Source: Planctomycetota bacterium (GTDB lineage Bacteria > Planctomycetota > UBA8742 > UBA2392). Taken from it: 64,000 nt of DNA. A program made the position numbers and the translations under genes. The stretch spans positions 2,243,261-2,307,260 of the forward strand of contig JACKID010000001.1 of NCBI GenBank assembly GCA_020638675.1. Reading direction: 5' to 3'. Below the pieces are notes generated by a model, which saw nothing but the letters and a program-made list of their open reading frames with translations, was not told where the DNA came from and did no database searches. Position 1 is the stretch's first letter; every line of letters starts with the position of its first letter. This document shows, one piece after another, positions 1,909-61,325 of this stretch.

Positions 1909-3362
1909 TGGCCACAGGCACGAAAACCGAGTACGAGCCGGTCATAGGGCTGGAAGTCCACGTCCAACTCAAGACCGCGTCCAAAATGTTCTGCGGCTGC
2001 GCCGTGCAGTTCGGCGCGCCCGCGAACTCGCTGACCTGCCCGGTCTGCCTCGGGCTGCCGGGCGCGCTGCCGATGGTCAACAGGCAGGCCGTCGAGTACG
2101 GCATCCGGGTCGGGCTGGCGCTGAACTGCCAGATCGCGCACCGGGTTAAATTTGACCGCAAGAACTACTTCTACCCGGACCTGCCCAAGGGCTACCAGGT
2201 CAGCCAGTACGACGAGCCCCTGTGCTTCGACGGCGAGCTTCAGCTGCCGATTCACGACGCGAGCGGCCAGCCCAAGATCTGCCGCATCACGCGCGCGCAC
2301 CTTGAGGAAGACGCGGGCAAGTCGATCCACATGGACGGCAGCACGCTGGTGGACCTGAACCGCGCCGGCACGCCGCTGATCGAAATCGTCGGCGGGCCCG
2401 ACCTGCGCAGCCCCGAAGAGGCCTACATCTACCTGAACACGCTAAAGCGGAACCTGAGCTATCTCGGGGTCAGCGACCTGAGCATGGAAAAGGGCAGTCT
2501 AAGGTGCGACGCTAACGTCAGCATCCGCCCGAAGGGGCAGGAGAAGTTCGGCGTGCGCAGCGAGATCAAGAACCTGAACAGCTTCCGCATGGTCCGCGCG
2601 GCGCTGGAGTTCGAGATCAAGCGGCATGAGCAGGTGCTCGAATCCGGCGGCACGCTCACCCAGCAGACCCTGCTGTGGGACGACGAAAAACAGGAGACCC
2701 GCAGCATGCGCAGCAAGGAGGAAGCAACCGATTACCGCTTCTTCCCCGAGCCGGACCTCGCCACGTTCGATGTACCGCGCGAATGGGTCGAGCAGGTCCG
2801 CGCCACACTGCCCGAGATGCCGGAAAAGCGCCTGCTGCGCTTTCTGGACGACTACAAGCTCAGTGAGCAGGACGCGGAGTACCTGGTCGGGGACAAGGCG
2901 CTGGCCGACTTCTACGAGACCGCGCTCAAGCTGATGGACGAGCCGCGCAAGGTCGCGGCCTGGGTGGTCGGCGAGGTCACGCGCGAGCTAAATGACCGCA
3001 ACGCCGCCATCGGCGACCTGAAGCTGACGCCCGAAGAGTTGATCGAGCTGATCAAACTGCTCGACGCCGGCAAGCTGAACAACATCACGGCCAAGGAAGT
3101 CTTCCACGCCATGGTCGAGACGGGCGAAGGCGCAATGACAGCAGCCCAGCGCCTGAACAAACTGATCGTGCAGGACGACGACGCAATGAACGCCGTGATC
3201 GACGAAGTCATCGCCGAGTTCGCCGACAAGGCCGTCGCCGACTTCAAGGCCGGCGAAGAAAAGGCACTTGGCTTCCTGATCGGGCAGTGCATGCGCAAGC
3301 TGAAGGGCAAGGCGAATCCGAAGGAGCTGGGACCAAAGATTGCGGCGCGGATCAACGGCTAG
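1908..3362 (+). CDS. gatB: Asp-tRNA(Asn)/Glu-tRNA(Gln) amidotransferase subunit B
   Basis: ATG at 1908 overlaps the upstream stop (TAATG). N-terminus MATGTKTEYEPVIGLEVHVQLKTASKMFCGC matches the GatB signature, and the protein is ~484 aa. The 609-aa ORF-track extension upstream from 1533 overlaps the previous gene and is rejected. Confidence 0.9.
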   Translation: MATGTKTEYEPVIGLEVHVQLKTASKMFCGCAVQFGAPANSLTCPVCLGLPGALPMVNRQAVEYGIRVGLALNCQIAHRVKFDRKNYFYPDLPKGYQVSQYDEPLCFDGELQLPIHDASGQPKICRITRAHLEEDAGKSIHMDGSTLVDLNRAGTPLIEIVGGPDLRSPEEAYIYLNTLKRNLSYLGVSDLSMEKGSLRCDANVSIRPKGQEKFGVRSEIKNLNSFRMVRAALEFEIKRHEQVLESGGTLTQQTLLWDDEKQETRSMRSKEEATDYRFFPEPDLATFDVPREWVEQVRATLPEMPEKRLLRFLDDYKLSEQDAEYLVGDKALADFYETALKLMDEPRKVAAWVVGEVTRELNDRNAAIGDLKLTPEELIELIKLLDAGKLNNITAKEVFHAMVETGEGAMTAAQRLNKLIVQDDDAMNAVIDEVIAEFADKAVADFKAGEEKALGFLIGQCMRKLKGKANPKELGPKIAARING

Positions 3363-3365
3363 CTC

Positions 3366-3444
3366 GCGATCAGCCCCGCCCAAGAGGGCGGGGATAGGTC
3401 AGACAGAATTGCCGCATCAATCCCCGGCCTTTCGGCCGGGGCGG
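3366..3444. repeat. REP-like double-hairpin intergenic element, copy A
   Basis: gcgatcagCCCCGCCCaagaGGGCGGGG, then 28 nt, then CCCCGGCCtttcGGCCGGGGcgg. It is nearly identical in both hairpins to a second copy at 24229-24306. Both copies sit directly 3' of a stop codon. Confidence 0.6.
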
Positions 3445-3457
3445 AGCGACTCGGCCT

Positions 3458-3877
3458 ATGTTCGAAGACCAACGCCCGTTGCGCCATGCCATCGTCGCCG
3501 TGATTGAGTCCGGCGACGAAATCCTGTTTATCGAACGCGCGGCCATGGACACCTGGCCCGGCTACTGGTCCACGGTGACCGGCCAGCTTGAGCCGGGCGA
3601 AGACCAGCAATCGGGCTGCGTGCGCGAAGCCTTTGAGGAAGTCGGGCTGCGCGTGAAGCCCGTTCGCAAGCTGTGGGAAAGCATGACGCGCCGCGCCCAC
3701 TTCGTGCTGCACTGGTGGCAGTGCGAGCTGACCGGCCCACGCGACGTCACGCCCGACCCCAAGGAAGTCGCCAACCACAAGTGGATTCACCGTCGCGATA
3801 TCCCGAGCATTCCGCTGATGTTCAGCGACTCCCGCTGGTTCTTCCGCGAGGTGTACCCGGGCGTCAGACATGCCTGA
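3458..3877 (+). CDS. NUDIX hydrolase
   Basis: Nudix box GQLEPGEDQQSGCVREAFEEVGL (GX5EX7REUXEEXGU pattern). 139 aa. Confidence 0.8.
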   Translation: MFEDQRPLRHAIVAVIESGDEILFIERAAMDTWPGYWSTVTGQLEPGEDQQSGCVREAFEEVGLRVKPVRKLWESMTRRAHFVLHWWQCELTGPRDVTPDPKEVANHKWIHRRDIPSIPLMFSDSRWFFREVYPGVRHA

Positions 3878-3886
3878 AGAGTGGCG

Positions 3887-4003
3887 CAGACAATCCTGTC
3901 TGCGGGGCGCGACGCGACCACAGACAAGATTGTCTGTGCCACCCAACCGACCACAGACATGATTGTCTCTGCCACTCAACCGACCACAGACACGATTGTC
4001 TGT
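3887..4003. repeat. Phased array of four 18-bp palindromes (ACAGACA-N4-TGTCTGT) at exact 33-bp spacing, candidate operator/iteron array
   Basis: Palindromes start at 3887 (degenerate: cAGACAatccTGTCTG), 3920, 3953 and 3986, a 33-bp period. The N4 cores are aaga, atga and cgat. The array lies between the NUDIX stop (3877) and the start of the membrane-protein gene (4032). Confidence 0.7.
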
Positions 4004-4031
4004 GCCACCCGAACGCTACTACACTCTGCCC

Positions 4032-4790
4032 ATGCCCCACGCCCTGCTTGCCCTGACAATTTCCAACGCGCTGGACATCCTGCGCCGGGGCGGCACCTGG
4101 GTTCTGGCCGCAACCGGCGTCGCGTTCATCCTGTCGCTGCGCTGGTTCAGCACGTTCGGGCTGGGCTACGAGGTCGTGCAGCTTGAAGAACTCGGCGTCT
4201 ACACCATCGGGCTGCTCGGCGCGGTGGCGGTACTGGTGTTCTGCCTGCCCGGCGAAGACGAAACCGATGAGCCCGAGGCGCTGCTACTGACGCGCCCGGT
4301 GTCGCGCTGGGTCCTGTCATTGGGCACGTTCTTTGGACGGCTGCTTCCGATCGCGTTGCTGTGCCTGCTCTGGAGCTTCGCGATCTTCAACGCGCTGCTG
4401 TGGTTTGAGCTGGAAGACCCCGGGCTCTTCAGCTACCGCGGCTCCAGCAGCGCATTGTCCGAGAGCGGCGGCCTGATCCTGCCGGTACTGGGGCAGTTGT
4501 TCGCCACCAGCATCCTGCTCGCGTTCGTGCAGCCGGTGGCCCGCCTGCGTCGTCCGGTGCTGGTGGGGCTGGCGACGTTGGGGCTGTACGTGCTCGGGTA
4601 TGCTGTGGCCGGGCTTGGCGGCGCCTGGTCGGTCATCCTGCCCGATCTCAGCCGTCACGACCTGACTTCGCTGCTGTGGGGACCCGGTTTGCAGGTTTCC
4701 ATGCCCGCCCTGCTAGTTCACGCTTGTGCGTGGTGTGCGGCCGGGGTAGCGTTGGACAGCATCGGATTAACAGTCAAGTCAGCGGCATAA
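4032..4790 (+). CDS. Hypothetical polytopic membrane protein
   Basis: The ORF is open from a TTG at 3963, but the first ATG at 4032 (MPHALLALTIS...) lies outside the repeat array. There are multiple hydrophobic helices and no recognised family. Confidence 0.5.
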   Translation: MPHALLALTISNALDILRRGGTWVLAATGVAFILSLRWFSTFGLGYEVVQLEELGVYTIGLLGAVAVLVFCLPGEDETDEPEALLLTRPVSRWVLSLGTFFGRLLPIALLCLLWSFAIFNALLWFELEDPGLFSYRGSSSALSESGGLILPVLGQLFATSILLAFVQPVARLRRPVLVGLATLGLYVLGYAVAGLGGAWSVILPDLSRHDLTSLLWGPGLQVSMPALLVHACAWCAAGVALDSIGLTVKSAA

Positions 4791-4919
4791 GGCACAATAC
4801 GGCGGGCGTTTGCATTCGTCTTGCCGGGTATGAAAGTAAAGGCTAGACTTTAATATTGGACCTCACGGGTCTACTTCTGTCCAACATCCTGTCACAGGTA
4901 CGCCTGCCGGGGGTCGGTT

Positions 4920-5645
4920 TTGCGGTACGCCATATTCGGTGACATCCACGGCAATATCGAGGCGCTGGATACAGTGCTGTCGCATTGCAAGAAAGAGGGC
5001 GTTGACCGCTACCTCTGCCTGGGTGATATCGTCGGCTACGGCGCCAACCCCGACGAGTGTTGCGACATCGTCCGCGAAATGGGCTGCCCCACCGTCGCCG
5101 GCAACCACGACTGGGCCGTCTGCGGCAAGCTCAGCATCGAATTCTTCAACACCTACGCCAAGCAGGCCGTCTACTGGACGCGCGACAACCTCAAAGAAGA
5201 GAACATGCAGTTCCTTCGCGAGCTGCCGCTGGTCCATGAGGTCAACGACGACATCACGCTTGTGCACGGCAGCCTGAACTTTCCGGACCTGTTCGACTAC
5301 ATCCAGACCAGCCAGGACGCGCGCCTCTCGCTTGAGAAGCTGCGCACGCGCGTCTGCTTTCTCGGGCACTCACACGTGCCGGTCACCTTCTTCAGCGGGC
5401 CGATGGTCAGCTACTCGATGTCCTACGAGATCAACCTCAAGGGCTTCGAGAAAGCGCTGGTGAACGTCGGCAGCGTGGGCCAGCCGCGCGACGAAAACCC
5501 GAAGTCGTGCTTCGCCATCTACGACAGCGACAAAGAGATGGTGAAGATCACCCGCCTCGAGTACGACCTGGAAACCACAGGCCGAAAAATCCTCGACGCA
5601 GGCCTGCCCGAAATCCTCGCCGAACGCCTGAAGTTCGGGCGCTAA
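4920..5645 (+). CDS. Metallophosphoesterase (calcineurin-like phosphoesterase family)
   Basis: N-terminal GDIHGN motif, then GDIVGYG, GNHD and GHSH metal-ligand motifs. TTG start at 4920 (no in-frame ATG upstream). Confidence 0.8.
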   Translation: MRYAIFGDIHGNIEALDTVLSHCKKEGVDRYLCLGDIVGYGANPDECCDIVREMGCPTVAGNHDWAVCGKLSIEFFNTYAKQAVYWTRDNLKEENMQFLRELPLVHEVNDDITLVHGSLNFPDLFDYIQTSQDARLSLEKLRTRVCFLGHSHVPVTFFSGPMVSYSMSYEINLKGFEKALVNVGSVGQPRDENPKSCFAIYDSDKEMVKITRLEYDLETTGRKILDAGLPEILAERLKFGR

Positions 5646-6501: not shown

Positions 6502-6548
6502 AGAAAAAGCCCGAAGGACGCGAAGTCTCTAGACTCTTCGCGTCCTTC
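6502..6548 (-). terminator. Rho-independent terminator downstream of moxR
   Basis: Perfect 13-bp stem GAAGGACGCGAAG / CTTCGCGTCCTTC (6513-6525 and 6536-6548). On the minus strand it is followed by GGGCTTTTTCTTC. Confidence 0.55.
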
Positions 6549-6577
6549 GCTTGTCTTCGCCTCTTCGCGTGAAGCCC

Positions 6578-14159: not shown

Positions 14160-14777
14160 ATGCCGAACCAGCCGATTTCGATCAATCTCGACCGCATGGT
14201 GGATGCCATGCTCGACACCCGCACGCCCCACTACTGGGACCCCAAGCGATCGAAGATCGTGCGCGGCAGCAGCGAACTTGACGACGACCGCACCCGCCGC
14301 GTGCTGATCGACACGATCGGCAAGCGCAAGTTCAAGCAGCTCACGGACGGCTTCGCCAAGACCATCGATCCCAAGGATGGCAAGCTGGTGCAGGAGGCCG
14401 TCAAGGGCAGCTTCGACAAGTTCAACCGTCTGCTGCAGAAGCGCCTTGACCTGAAACAGGCCTGGATCGCTTACGCCGGCGTGGAACTCATGGACGCGGC
14501 CGTGGACTGGCTCTCGATGCAGGGCGTCGAGGAATTCATCGCGACCGGCGAAATCGCCAAGTTCGCGATCGAAGAAGCCGAGGCCGAAGAAGAGGCCGAA
14601 GACGAAGACCTCGACGAGGATGACGACGAGGAAGAAGAAGCCGAAGAAGAAGAGGAAGAAGAGGTCGAGGAGGAAGAAGAAGAGGAAGAGGAAGAAGAGG
14701 ACGAAGACGAAGAAGAAGAGGACGAAGACGAGGAAGAGGACGAAGATTCCCTCGATGAAGACGAAGACGACGAATAG
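14160..14777 (+). CDS. Hypothetical protein with an ~80-residue poly-Glu/Asp C-terminal tail
   Basis: GAGGAAAC SD. The N-terminal ~125 aa form a globular-looking region, and from ~14575 the DNA is a GAA/GAG/GAC microsatellite-like run encoding EEAEAEEEAEDEDLDEDDDEEEE... Confidence 0.6.
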   Translation: MPNQPISINLDRMVDAMLDTRTPHYWDPKRSKIVRGSSELDDDRTRRVLIDTIGKRKFKQLTDGFAKTIDPKDGKLVQEAVKGSFDKFNRLLQKRLDLKQAWIAYAGVELMDAAVDWLSMQGVEEFIATGEIAKFAIEEAEAEEEAEDEDLDEDDDEEEEAEEEEEEEVEEEEEEEEEEEDEDEEEEDEDEEEDEDSLDEDEDDE

Positions 14778-35613: not shown

Positions 35614-38493
35614 TTAGTCGCTATTGGGCATAAGCTCCGCCAGAATCGTTGCAACCTCTTTCGCCGTAAGGGCGAATGTCCGCGTGCGGTCCGCGCGTGC
35701 GATGTTCAGCCCCACCAGGTTGCCCCTCAGGTCAAACACTGGGCAGCCCTGCTGTGACGGCAATGTCACACCGTCGTGCTGGATGACCTTCCCGAGGTGC
35801 GTGTAGCGGTCGTTGATAGGACCTTTCACGTTCGGGCGTCCCCCACCCGGAGGCGGCGGCGGGGCGTCTTCCTCGGCAAGCTCGACGTCCAACCGAGTTT
35901 CCTTGCCGTCGCGCAGCATCACGATCCCCACTGTGTCGCCGATTTTGTGGGCCTTGACCGCGTCGTCGATGTCGCGTTGCTCGGTCACGTCCTTGTCGTC
36001 GATCTTGAGCAGGATTTCGCCGCTGCTGACGCCGGCCAGCTCAGCCGGTGAGCCCGGCTTCACGTACCCGACCTGCACCCCTTTGCCTTCGGGCGCAGCC
36101 TTGGATTGGAAGATGCCGAGTTCCGGCTTGCCGGTACCCTTGCTGGGCACTTTCTGTCCCAGCGCTTCGGCGCGCGCCACGAGCTGGATTTCCAGGTCGA
36201 GCGTTTGATCGCCGCGCTTTACCGACAAGGTCACCTTGTCGGTCGGCTTGCGCCCGCGGATCATTGCGATCAGCCCGTTCCAGTCGTCCACGGTCTGGCC
36301 GCTCATCTTGAGCACGATGTCGCCGACCTTCACACCGCCCTTGTCCGCGGGCATGTCGGACGTGACGCTGGTGACTTCCGCGCCGCCGCCGTCGGCGTCC
36401 TTTGCCGAGATGCCGAGGAACGGGCTGTTCGGGTCCGGCTGGCCGGCGATCTTGTCGCTGTCGTACGGCGGAAGCGCGACGAACCCGTGCGCAAAGCAGT
36501 CGCCGTGCGCGTCCACACTGGCGAGCATCGTGCCGATCATCGGGAAGTCTTCCGTCGTGGTCCCCGCTTTGAAGTCGATCCACTTGGTGAACTTGCGGTC
36601 GCACTTCAGCAGCGCGATGTCGTGGCGGTCGTTGCGCCCCGCCACCTTGGCTTCGAAGCCGGTCGTGCCATCCAGCAGCTCGATCTTTTCCGCCTCGTCG
36701 ATCTCGCTGGCTTTGGTCACGAGGTAGCCGTCCTTGCCGACGACTGTGGCGAACGCGACCTGCTTGCCCTTCTGCTTGACCGGGAAGACGGTGCCCTTGG
36801 CTTTGCTTTCGAGCAGCTTGGCCCACAGCACCAGCAGATGGCTGCCCTGCTTCCAGTCATCGCGCGGGAGGCTGCCGTCGCCGCTGTCTTCGCCCCCTAC
36901 GTCGCCGGTGGAATAGCTGAACTTGATGCGCTCGCGCGAGTAGCCGCGCTTAACCTCAAACTCCGTCTCGCTATTGCCGTCGATCATCATCATCGCGTTC
37001 GCGAAATCAAGCGCGCCATCGATGTCGAGGTCGCCGACTTTCACGATCACGTCGTCCTCGCGCAGCCCGGCGTTGAACGCCAGTCCGCCTTCCATCAGCT
37101 CAATGATGCGCGCCCCGCCCTGGCCGAAAATGCGTGCGCCGAACGCCGGAACGCTGAGGTGCAGCACCTGCCGTTTCCCGCCGCGGCTGATCTTGATCTC
37201 CTGCTCTTCGACGATGCCGCGCGAAATCACCCATTCGACCCAGTCGGTTGCCTTCTCGACCTTGTCGCGATCCACGCGCTCGATGATGTCGTTGGCCTCG
37301 AACCCCGCCTTGCCGGCCGGTGAGTTCGGCAGCACGTCGTCCACTCGCACGCCCTTGTAGGACCGCACTGCCATACCCACGACGGGCCGTTTGCTGGCGC
37401 GGCGCCCGTTCTTCATCCACTCCTTGAAGTCGTCGCGGTCGCGCACGGGGTCGAGGTCCGTGTCCTGGCCCGCGTGGTCCATGTCGCGCCAGCCGGCTTC
37501 CGTGGACCGCTGCAGCGCGGAGATTGCCTTCTTGGCGGCTTCCTCGGCTTCCTTGCCCTTGAGCTCGGCCGAGTAGAGCGAATAGGCACAGGCCGCGTTG
37601 TACAGTACATCTGCTGTGCGCTTCTCGGGCTTGAGCAGGTCGTCAAACAGCTTGCACGCACGCTTCAGATCACGGTCCTGCAGCGCCTTTACGGCGTCCT
37701 GGTAGGTCTTCACTTCCTTGCCGGTCAGCTCGCCTTCGACCGGGACACGGTTGCCCTTGCCCCAACTGGGGTTGGTCGCGTTGCCGAAGGTCTTGCCGGC
37801 CTTCAGATCTTCCATCATCTCTTTCATCGCCTTGACCGGCGTGACATTGTTGATGGAGACGTTGTTGGTCTGGATGGACTGATTGATCGCGACCATGTTG
37901 CCGTCCAGGTCGAATACCGGGCCGCCTGAGTCACCGCTGATTACCGGCGCGTCCGTCACGATCATCCCGCGCCCGTTGTCCGGCGCGAGGCACCGGCCTG
38001 CACGCACGACCGGGTCGCGCCCGGCCTCGGGGCCCAGCGGGTGGCCCATCGGGATCAGCCACTGCCCGGCCTTAACCTTGTCGGAGTCCCCCAGAGGACA
38101 GAACGGAACTTTGGCCCCTTTGGTGTCCGCCTTGATGAGTGCGTGGTCGAAGTCTTCGTTCCAGCCGCAGGTGACGGCATCCAGCATTTCGCCGCCGAAC
38201 AGGACGATGCGGCACTTGGTGCCGACCTTGGGCCCGGTGACGTGACCGCAGGTCGAAATCCAGCCGTCGTCGCTGATGAAACAGCCTGAGCCGGACGAAT
38301 TGCTCATGCGCACGCCAACGACCGCGGGCCGCACTTTCGCGGCGACGGTCTGGATACGGCGTTCCAGTTGCAGATAGTCGTCAAACTTGCTGACTGGCTG
38401 CTCGGGCGCTGACTGCGCGCGCGTGAGAGACAGCAGACCGACGGCCGTGAGCACGACGGACGCCAGAAAAAATCGGGTCCCGATCTTCTTCAC
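35614..38493 (-). CDS. Large secreted trypsin-like serine protease with multiple PDZ domains (HtrA-related, 959 aa)
   Basis: Signal peptide. The first trypsin-like catalytic core contains GDSGGP (TDAPVISGDSGGPVFDLDGNMVAI), followed by further, possibly degenerate, trypsin-like segments and several PDZ-like GxGV motifs. Confidence 0.78.
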   Translation of the reverse strand: MKKIGTRFFLASVVLTAVGLLSLTRAQSAPEQPVSKFDDYLQLERRIQTVAAKVRPAVVGVRMSNSSGSGCFISDDGWISTCGHVTGPKVGTKCRIVLFGGEMLDAVTCGWNEDFDHALIKADTKGAKVPFCPLGDSDKVKAGQWLIPMGHPLGPEAGRDPVVRAGRCLAPDNGRGMIVTDAPVISGDSGGPVFDLDGNMVAINQSIQTNNVSINNVTPVKAMKEMMEDLKAGKTFGNATNPSWGKGNRVPVEGELTGKEVKTYQDAVKALQDRDLKRACKLFDDLLKPEKRTADVLYNAACAYSLYSAELKGKEAEEAAKKAISALQRSTEAGWRDMDHAGQDTDLDPVRDRDDFKEWMKNGRRASKRPVVGMAVRSYKGVRVDDVLPNSPAGKAGFEANDIIERVDRDKVEKATDWVEWVISRGIVEEQEIKISRGGKRQVLHLSVPAFGARIFGQGGARIIELMEGGLAFNAGLREDDVIVKVGDLDIDGALDFANAMMMIDGNSETEFEVKRGYSRERIKFSYSTGDVGGEDSGDGSLPRDDWKQGSHLLVLWAKLLESKAKGTVFPVKQKGKQVAFATVVGKDGYLVTKASEIDEAEKIELLDGTTGFEAKVAGRNDRHDIALLKCDRKFTKWIDFKAGTTTEDFPMIGTMLASVDAHGDCFAHGFVALPPYDSDKIAGQPDPNSPFLGISAKDADGGGAEVTSVTSDMPADKGGVKVGDIVLKMSGQTVDDWNGLIAMIRGRKPTDKVTLSVKRGDQTLDLEIQLVARAEALGQKVPSKGTGKPELGIFQSKAAPEGKGVQVGYVKPGSPAELAGVSSGEILLKIDDKDVTEQRDIDDAVKAHKIGDTVGIVMLRDGKETRLDVELAEEDAPPPPPGGGRPNVKGPINDRYTHLGKVIQHDGVTLPSQQGCPVFDLRGNLVGLNIARADRTRTFALTAKEVATILAELMPNSD

Positions 38494-61251: not shown

Positions 61252-61272
61252 AGACAACTCGAAATGAACAAT

Positions 61273-61325
61273 GCAAAATCCAAAATTGGACCGCACGCCT
61301 GAGTCCATTTTGGATTTTGCAATTT
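61273..61325 (+). terminator. AT-rich long hairpin after the TPR-alphaCTD gene
   Basis: GCAAAATCCAAAATTGGAC ... GTCCATTTTGGATTTTGC (~18-bp imperfect stem), followed by aattt. Its composition is unusual for this GC-rich locus. Confidence 0.45.

Follow-up and report, generated by a model that had tools for sequence, protein, structure and literature searches.

The locus studied here lies in a 64-kb stretch of planctomycete DNA (hereafter the window, by which we mean the whole stretch that was analyzed), and comprises two genes on the plus strand with an array of short repeats between them. The upstream gene (3458-3877) encodes a NUDIX hydrolase (Pfam PF00293, E = 5e-18), while the downstream gene (4032-4790) encodes a conserved hydrophobic (membrane) protein of 252 aa that belongs to no Pfam family, and whose extent was defined by the lengths of its homologues. 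A TTG start at 3963 was considered for the latter gene and rejected, since a length of 251-252 aa, shared by 23 of the 25 best homologues, corresponds to the ATG at 4032; the homologues with the best naming come from metagenome-assembled genomes of Planctomycetes. The array is consequently noncoding and lies between the NUDIX stop and this ATG, as an earlier note on this DNA had proposed. A consensus scan of positions 3300-5000 revealed no sigma-70-like promoter, T-run or intrinsic terminator. Regarding structured RNAs, only a tRNA located elsewhere was recovered from the whole window at Rfam 15 gathering scores, and a permissive Rfam search of positions 3800-4100 returned only chance-level miRNA and sRNA matches (all E >= 0.24).

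Architecture of the repeat array

The array occupies positions 3881-4008 and is constituted by four hairpin-forming units, the first in one orientation and the following three arranged in tandem in the other. The palindrome ACAGACA-N4-TGTCTGT, allowing up to two mismatches, has four matches in the 64-kb window, all of them within the array (0.12 expected), and none of 100 shuffled sequences reached four; no further copies of the element were found elsewhere in the window. A 33-bp period was identified by TRF, with 2.9 copies and 90% matches over positions 3915-4010. The earlier note had described the array as four 18-bp inverted repeats perfectly phased at 33 bp. The array itself is real, and its three downstream copies (starting at 3920, 3953 and 3986) are exactly 33 bp apart, but the upstream copy is 34 bp from the next one, and its sequence (GCAGACAATCCTGTCTGC) starts at 3886 instead of 3887. 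Moreover, the copy at 3953 (ACAGACA-TGAT-TGTCTCT) is imperfect, with one stem mismatch, and the N4 cores, previously read as aaga, atga and cgat, are in fact AGAT, TGAT and CGAT, with GAT conserved.

The palindromes do form hairpins; however, the unit that is repeated exceeds 18 bp and is asymmetric, with 25 nt and the consensus CC-RCAGACA-NGAT-TGTCTSY-GCCAC. As its flanks reveal, the upstream copy (3881-3905, GTGGCGCAGACAATCCTGTCTGCGG) is the reverse complement of units 2-4 (CCACAGACA.GATTGTCTGTGCCAC), and is thus opposite in orientation to the others. Complementarity of unit 1 reaches 88% to both unit 2 and unit 4 (25 nt each) and 85% to unit 3 (27 nt), and the whole unit of 33-35 nt, including an 8-nt linker, is repeated at 91% identity.

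All four units carry a GTGG tag. In unit 1 (3881-3905, plus strand), which reads GTGG-CGCAGACA-ATCC-TGTCTGCG-G, the tag is 5'-most on the plus strand and starts 3 nt past the NUDIX stop codon (TGA, 3875-3877), with the stem located 7 nt past the stop. A 12-nt spacer (GGCGCGACGCGA, 3906-3917) separates it from unit 2 (3918-3942, minus strand), which reads GTGG-CACAGACA-ATCT-TGTCTGTG-G on the minus strand and fits the collection-wide consensus GCACAGACAGGATTGTCTGTGCCAC. Unit 2 pairs with unit 1 in the dimer and also opens the tandem series of three; it is followed by an 8-nt linker (CCAACCGA, 3943-3950) that is part of the 33-bp duplicated unit; by unit 3 (3951-3975, minus strand), which is degenerate due to one stem mismatch (TGTCTCT); by a second 8-nt linker (TCAACCGA, 3976-3983) of the same direct-repeat family; and by unit 4 (3984-4008, minus strand), which ends 23 nt short of the membrane-protein ATG.

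When folded as single-stranded DNA, the units display stems of 8-9 bp with a 4-nt loop and energies of -5 to -9.3 kcal/mol, the most stable being unit 1 (-9.3 kcal/mol, z = -5.5), followed by unit 4 (-8.0 kcal/mol), unit 2 (-7.5 kcal/mol) and the weaker hairpin of unit 3 (-5.0 kcal/mol). A single unit folds into an unpaired GTGG followed by an 8-bp stem. Units 1 and 2, which constitute a head-to-head inverted dimer, fold jointly into one long hairpin (-25.7 kcal/mol, z = -7.2), and the array region as a whole folds far better than shuffled sequence on both the plus (z = -5.6) and the minus (z = -6.5) strands. Inverted dimers and clusters are likewise the organization of REP and REPIN elements.

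The locus in related genomes

Relatives keep the gene order HAD, GatB, NUDIX, membrane protein, metallophosphoesterase and MoxR, but not the sequence between the NUDIX and membrane-protein genes. An identical array was found only in two contigs of the same species (L001 and L008), the latter of which breaks inside the array. Samples SRR12358676 and SRR17907852 contain this organism. In a relative with 78% protein identity (L005), merely 10 nt (2991-3000) lie between both genes, which suggests that they are co-transcribed; the NUDIX and membrane-protein genes probably form an operon. In two relatives with 79% identity (L002 and L003), the gap is occupied by an unrelated 80-nt hairpin (GAGCCCGAAGCGTAAGCG...CGCTTACGCTTCGGGCTC; 2841-2918 in L002), and the leader GCTACACTCTGCCC-ATG of the membrane-protein gene is common to these loci and the window. 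In two further relatives (L009 and L010, 85-89% identity), the gap contains GTTGACGGTCAAC-type and GTCGAC-rich repeats (approximately 405-480 in L009 and 1640-1715 in L010). The array is hence absent or replaced in L002, L003, L005, L009 and L010, and the orthologous region does not display the conservation that characterizes an operator. Since the locus is not conserved among relatives, sequence comparison indicates that the array is a recent, lineage-specific insertion and not a conserved regulatory region, and the gap between both genes resembles a hot spot at which palindromic repeats insert.

Dispersal of the 25-nt element

For the search in other genomes, the pattern CAGACANGATTGTCTNNGCCAC was scanned in one genome per species; this pattern fixed most consensus positions, including GCCAC, so that conservation can be judged at the free positions. 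The 25-nt element (GTGG followed by CACAGACA-ATCC-TGTCTGTG) was recovered in at least 119 stretches, compared to about 4.3 expected by chance. The earlier note had stated that its reading would be undermined by a palindrome that occurs nowhere else and a region that is not conserved in relatives; the locus is indeed not conserved, but the element clearly recurs elsewhere. The matches listed belong to Acidobacteriota, Planctomycetota (Pirellulaceae, Gemmatales, and the relatives HKST-UBA88 and HKST-UBA84) and Verrucomicrobiota, with single ones in two other groups. Some genomes hold several copies: at least 26 in one metagenome-assembled genome (MAG) of Pirellulaceae, at least 4 loci each in HKST-UBA88 and HKST-UBA84, and at least 6-8 loci in several others.

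Among the matches listed, sequence beyond the 25 nt is unconserved, and the free pair -1:16 covaries, being A-T in 98, G-C in 15 and C-G in 4 matches, while position -2, opposite a fixed G, is C in 120 of 125 matches; these free positions extend the stem to 9 bp. Compensatory change was also apparent outside the selection imposed by the pattern, as dimer partners carry the variant CAGGCA/TGCCTG, and a looser search in which the tail was not fixed recovered the stem variants CGGACA/TGTCCG and CAGGCA/TGCCTG. The same looser search returned tails reading CTAC (GTAG on the other strand) besides CCAC, and GTAG tags are present in the copies of L054 and L033, described below.

The position of the element relative to genes is biased. 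For the matches listed, and as judged by crude gene calls made from ORFs, the tag-side neighbor has its 3' end facing the element in 61 of 84 cases (p = 4e-5), and convergent gene pairs around the element outnumber divergent ones (29 vs 3). Transcription factor sites show the opposite of this convergent and 3'-end bias, whereas REPs show such a bias. A sigma-54 promoter (GTGGCAC-N5) was contemplated as a separate candidate and dropped, since its -12 GC element is missing and the 25-nt element is mostly found downstream of genes. When the ORFs located up to 3 kb from the element were clustered across the 119 loci listed, a RAYT-like cluster was present in 5 loci and one cluster, which we assume to be a generic family, in 9; all others were present in 4 loci at most. 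In the Pirellulaceae MAG CAZWSX01 (e.g., L012, L018, L023, L075 and L104), a semi-conserved ...CCACCGCGCA precedes the REP and a T-run follows it, an arrangement resembling an intrinsic terminator, and a second hairpin variant, GGACGGACAGGATTGTCCGTCC, is often found about 25 nt further on in the same orientation.

A search of the full-text literature with the core sequence in both orientations returned only unrelated primer matches, and the consensus of the GTAG-17 to GTAG-20 families is given by Di Nocera (2013; PMC3733652) in a figure only.

Dimers and clusters in other genomes

In the lineage of the window, the element recurs as a conserved dimer with the arrangement GTGG-CACAGGCA-ATCC-TGCCTGTG-GGGCTGAGCG...GCCGCGAC, followed by CACAGACA-AGAT-TGTCTGTG-CCAC, where a conserved spacer of approximately 47 nt ends in GCCGCGAC. 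This dimer of about 95 nt is present in the relatives L130-L137 and also in L013, L036, L100, L107, L116 and L119. The left REP of the relatives' dimer has the compensatory CAGGCA/TGCCTG stem, and the spacer holds a second hairpin (GTCGCGGC...GCCGCGAC). The junction GCGACCA-CAGACA is common to this dimer and the window, and the 12-nt window spacer keeps both ends of the long one (GGGGC... and ...GCGAC), of which it is probably a shortened remnant, as judged from this sequence comparison.

A layout equivalent to that of the window was identified in a Puniceicoccales MAG (L054, 4059-4211), where a GTAG-tagged REP and a spacer hairpin are followed by three tandem inverted REPs with a period of 35 bp. 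The earlier note had interpreted the 33-bp spacing as about three helical turns that place all palindromes on the same face of the DNA; since 33 bp is the length of the duplicated unit, and the same one-plus-three layout occurs at 35 bp in L054, the phasing is a consequence of duplication and not of selection for a helical face.

Association with RAYT transposase genes

RAYT sequences taken from Di Nocera (2013; PMC3733652, Additional file 5) were used as tblastn queries against a database composed of the 119 listed loci and the window. Matches were obtained in 5 of the 119 loci, and no RAYT gene was detected by tblastn in the 64-kb window. All five loci match Pfam Y1_Tnp, and for the four RAYTs that were scanned, the NCBIfam model NF047646 (REP-associated tyrosine transposase) gives a much better match than that of IS200; with NF047646, L124 and L111 score above the cut-off and L061 just under it, the remaining one being a partial ORF. 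Furthermore, the RAYT ORFs near the element display the motifs HVH, WQ..FDH..R and Y...NPV, and their homologues are named RayT in database sources.

A REPtron arrangement, in which the RAYT gene lies directly between inverted copies of the exact element whose GTGG tags face outward, is present in L061 (Ca. Acidoferrum) and L124 (Ca. Acidiferrales), and in L033 (Verrucomicrobiota) dimers of a GTAG-tagged variant (CCGAGACA-ATCC-TGTCTCGG) lie on both sides of the RAYT gene. Such element-flanked genes amount to only 2-3 of the RAYT genes sampled. Five other RAYT loci, corresponding to three proteins obtained by protein search (L138-L142), have no flanking perfect hairpins (stem of at least 6 bp, 4-nt loop, within 400 nt), and a metagenome scan with a lineage-specific pattern yielded 8 short contigs, in each of which the conserved dimer, but no RAYT gene, was found. 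As for the RAYT ORF of L061 (approximately 4094-4658), its start is probably upstream of the ATG used, as RRNLPHW is in frame from about 4094; with this upstream start, the ORF would be separated from the left REP by only about 45 nt and from the right one by 3 nt.

In the window, the candidate RAYT substrate is the single-stranded tagged hairpin GTGG-CACAGACAATCCTGTCTGTG. By comparison with the genomes above, we infer that a RAYT would exist, and would have acted, in the organism from which the window derives.

Discussion

We consider it highly probable that the array is a GT[AG]G-tagged REP cluster, in which a REP/REPIN dimer was inserted between two probably co-transcribed genes and one of its partners was then amplified. 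The array is therefore an ordinary kind of feature, and not a gene-specific control site. In the sequence of events that we propose, units 1 and 2 would be a REPIN-type head-to-head dimer with a shortened spacer that landed in the short intergenic gap, and units 3 and 4 would have arisen from unit 2 and its 8-nt linker by further tandem duplication, through slippage or unequal recombination. RAYT (TnpA-REP; an HUH/Y1 transposase) would recognize the tag and the hairpin in single-stranded DNA, and is thought to spread these elements, a role to which the genomic association in other genomes points. A REP cluster also accounts for the break of contig L008 inside the array and for the spurious repeated-peptide ORFs of the six-frame translation, which the earlier note had rightly regarded as artefacts of the repeats.

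GTAG-tagged REPs, REPtrons, REPIN dimers and BIME-like clusters have reportedly been described by Nunvar in 2010, by Bertels and Rainey in 2011, and by Ton-Hoang in 2012. The element resembles GTAG-tagged REPs and REPtrons in its 25-nt unit, with an unpaired 5' GT[AG]G tag and a hairpin of 8-9 bp, and in its dispersed and mostly extragenic copies; with REPtrons and REPINs it shares inverted dimers with a conserved spacer, tandem clusters, and, in other genomes, inverted copies that flank a RAYT gene. A 5' GT[AG]G is the canonical foot of REPs (Quentin, 2018; PMC6006769). GTAG-tagged REPs, including those of PVC bacteria, are covered in a previous survey, which describes head-head, tail-tail and head-tail dimers as well as clusters formed by tandem reiteration (Di Nocera, 2013; PMC3733652). 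The tag of the present element differs from that of GTAG-tagged REPs in being mostly GTGG, which is also the case for most GTAG-20 elements of Opitutus terrae according to that source. The placement of several REPs in a short gap between co-directional genes, with hairpins just past the upstream stop, is similar to that of E. coli BIMEs (e.g., malE-malF); however, BIMEs alternate REP orientation, have defined linker motifs, and bind IHF and gyrase, whereas the window displays one unit followed by three in the same orientation, joined by simple duplicated linkers.

The earlier note had favored an operator or iteron array, in which a dimeric regulator would bind the phased palindromes cooperatively and control the membrane-protein gene. 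Palindromic units located immediately upstream of a gene, three of them exactly 33 bp apart, are what such a reading would predict, and short repeats with a regular spacing near integral helical turns are indeed shared with the iteron or operator arrays of plasmids and regulons. We nevertheless regard it as very improbable, as orthologous loci lack the array or hold other sequence in its place, and the element adjoins unrelated genes in many genomes, where, apart from RAYT, a single neighbor family reaches 9 of the loci listed and the others 4 at most. The scarcity of the element in divergent promoter regions among the matches listed, the one-sided GT[AG]G tag and asymmetric loop, which would be unexpected for a symmetric dimer site, the equivalent array with a 35-bp period, the lack of a sigma-70-like promoter in 3300-5000, and the copies flanking RAYT transposase genes all argue in the same direction. 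Unlike iteron and operator arrays, this one has no association with replication or regulator genes and is not conserved at its locus, and it is built of asymmetric, tagged units that are scattered across genomes and associated with a transposase. A gene-specific structured RNA leader of the membrane-protein mRNA, such as an attenuator or a riboswitch-like element, is equally hard to credit: the region folds better than shuffled sequence on both strands, as such a leader should, but this strong folding is fully explained by the repeated palindromes, and Rfam offers no relevant family at either gathering or permissive thresholds; orthologous genes are not preceded by a conserved copy of the element, which occurs in both orientations, mostly downstream of genes. 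CRISPR arrays consist of direct repeats of 24-48 nt with unique spacers of similar length; a CRISPR-like array, or any other spacer-bearing repeat locus, would share with the window a regularly spaced palindromic repeat, yet the probability of this reading is negligible, since one repeat is separated from the next by 8 nt that are themselves repeated, there are only three tandem units plus an inverted one, and single copies of the repeat are dispersed over more than 100 sites. In this respect, the earlier note had correctly set CRISPR aside.

A further possibility is compatible with the REP cluster and concerns its present use: the hairpins may have been retained locally to set the ratio of NUDIX to membrane protein, by protecting the 3' end of the mRNA, by partly terminating transcription, or by stalling the termination of translation. 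In E. coli, REPs stabilize the upstream mRNA, as in malE-malF, and those located up to about 15 nt from a stop codon reduce the expression of the upstream gene. The BIME-like placement of the array just past the upstream stop makes similar effects on the NUDIX/membrane-gene transcript plausible, and the repeated RNA stem-loop that the earlier note had offered as an alternative agrees with this known behavior of REPs. On this mRNA, the hairpins could act as a barrier to 3' exonucleases or as a partial terminator after the NUDIX gene, decoupling the downstream gene, and the first stem, 7 nt past the stop, might impair termination of NUDIX translation and possibly lower NUDIX translation. Such local exaptation is favored by these E. 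coli precedents, by the co-transcription that the 10-nt gap in L005 suggests, by the preference of family members for positions just past stop codons, and by the independent presence of palindromes at the same site in three lineages. Even so, we judge it rather unlikely, as positions 3300-5000 hold no T-run or intrinsic-terminator signature, inserts turn over rapidly among close relatives, which speaks against any particular sequence being under strong selection, and the 3'-end bias may simply mark where insertions are tolerated.

REPs, REPINs and RAYTs are already well known, and the less ordinary aspect of the REP cluster described here is the near-identity of its core across three phyla. 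Most REP families are species- or genus-specific, whereas this core (GTGG/GTAG followed by CACAGACA-ATCC-TGTCTGTG) is nearly identical in Acidobacteriota, Planctomycetota and Verrucomicrobiota. It is conceivable, although on balance doubtful, that these copies represent a single, undescribed and unusually broad REP family. The near-identical core could reflect either the movement of REPtrons between phyla, a conserved recognition code between RAYT and REP, or a host function that freezes the sequence. If not described before, such a family would lend itself to the study of how REPINs and RAYTs co-evolve and spread horizontally among bacteria of soil and fresh water. Its documentation in uncultured Planctomycetota bears on the question of vertical versus horizontal inheritance of REPIN-RAYT systems, and the gap between the NUDIX and membrane-protein genes constitutes a small natural experiment, in which the same site is either empty or occupied by differing palindromic inserts, depending on the sister lineage. 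For the annotation of the window, recognition of the REP cluster averts a false regulon or operator call.

Other features of the window

Apart from the array, four features were observed in the window. A 19-nt palindrome (6512-6549; 89% complementary, with no gap between the arms) is located just past the stop of the minus-strand MoxR AAA gene, and may correspond to a terminator-like hairpin. Positions 14574-14746 are taken up by a long tandem repeat rich in GAA, GAG and GAC, in which several periods overlap; if coding, it would presumably specify an acidic low-complexity segment. A 96-nt tRNA-Gly(gcc) was called by ARAGORN at 36354-36449, with an Rfam tRNA score below the gathering cut-off, and may be either a false positive or an unusual tRNA. 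Lastly, a perfect 15-nt AT-rich inverted repeat (TGCAAAATCCAAAAT / ATTTTGGATTTTGCA) is found at 61272-61321, with 20 nt between its arms, in a window that is otherwise GC-rich.
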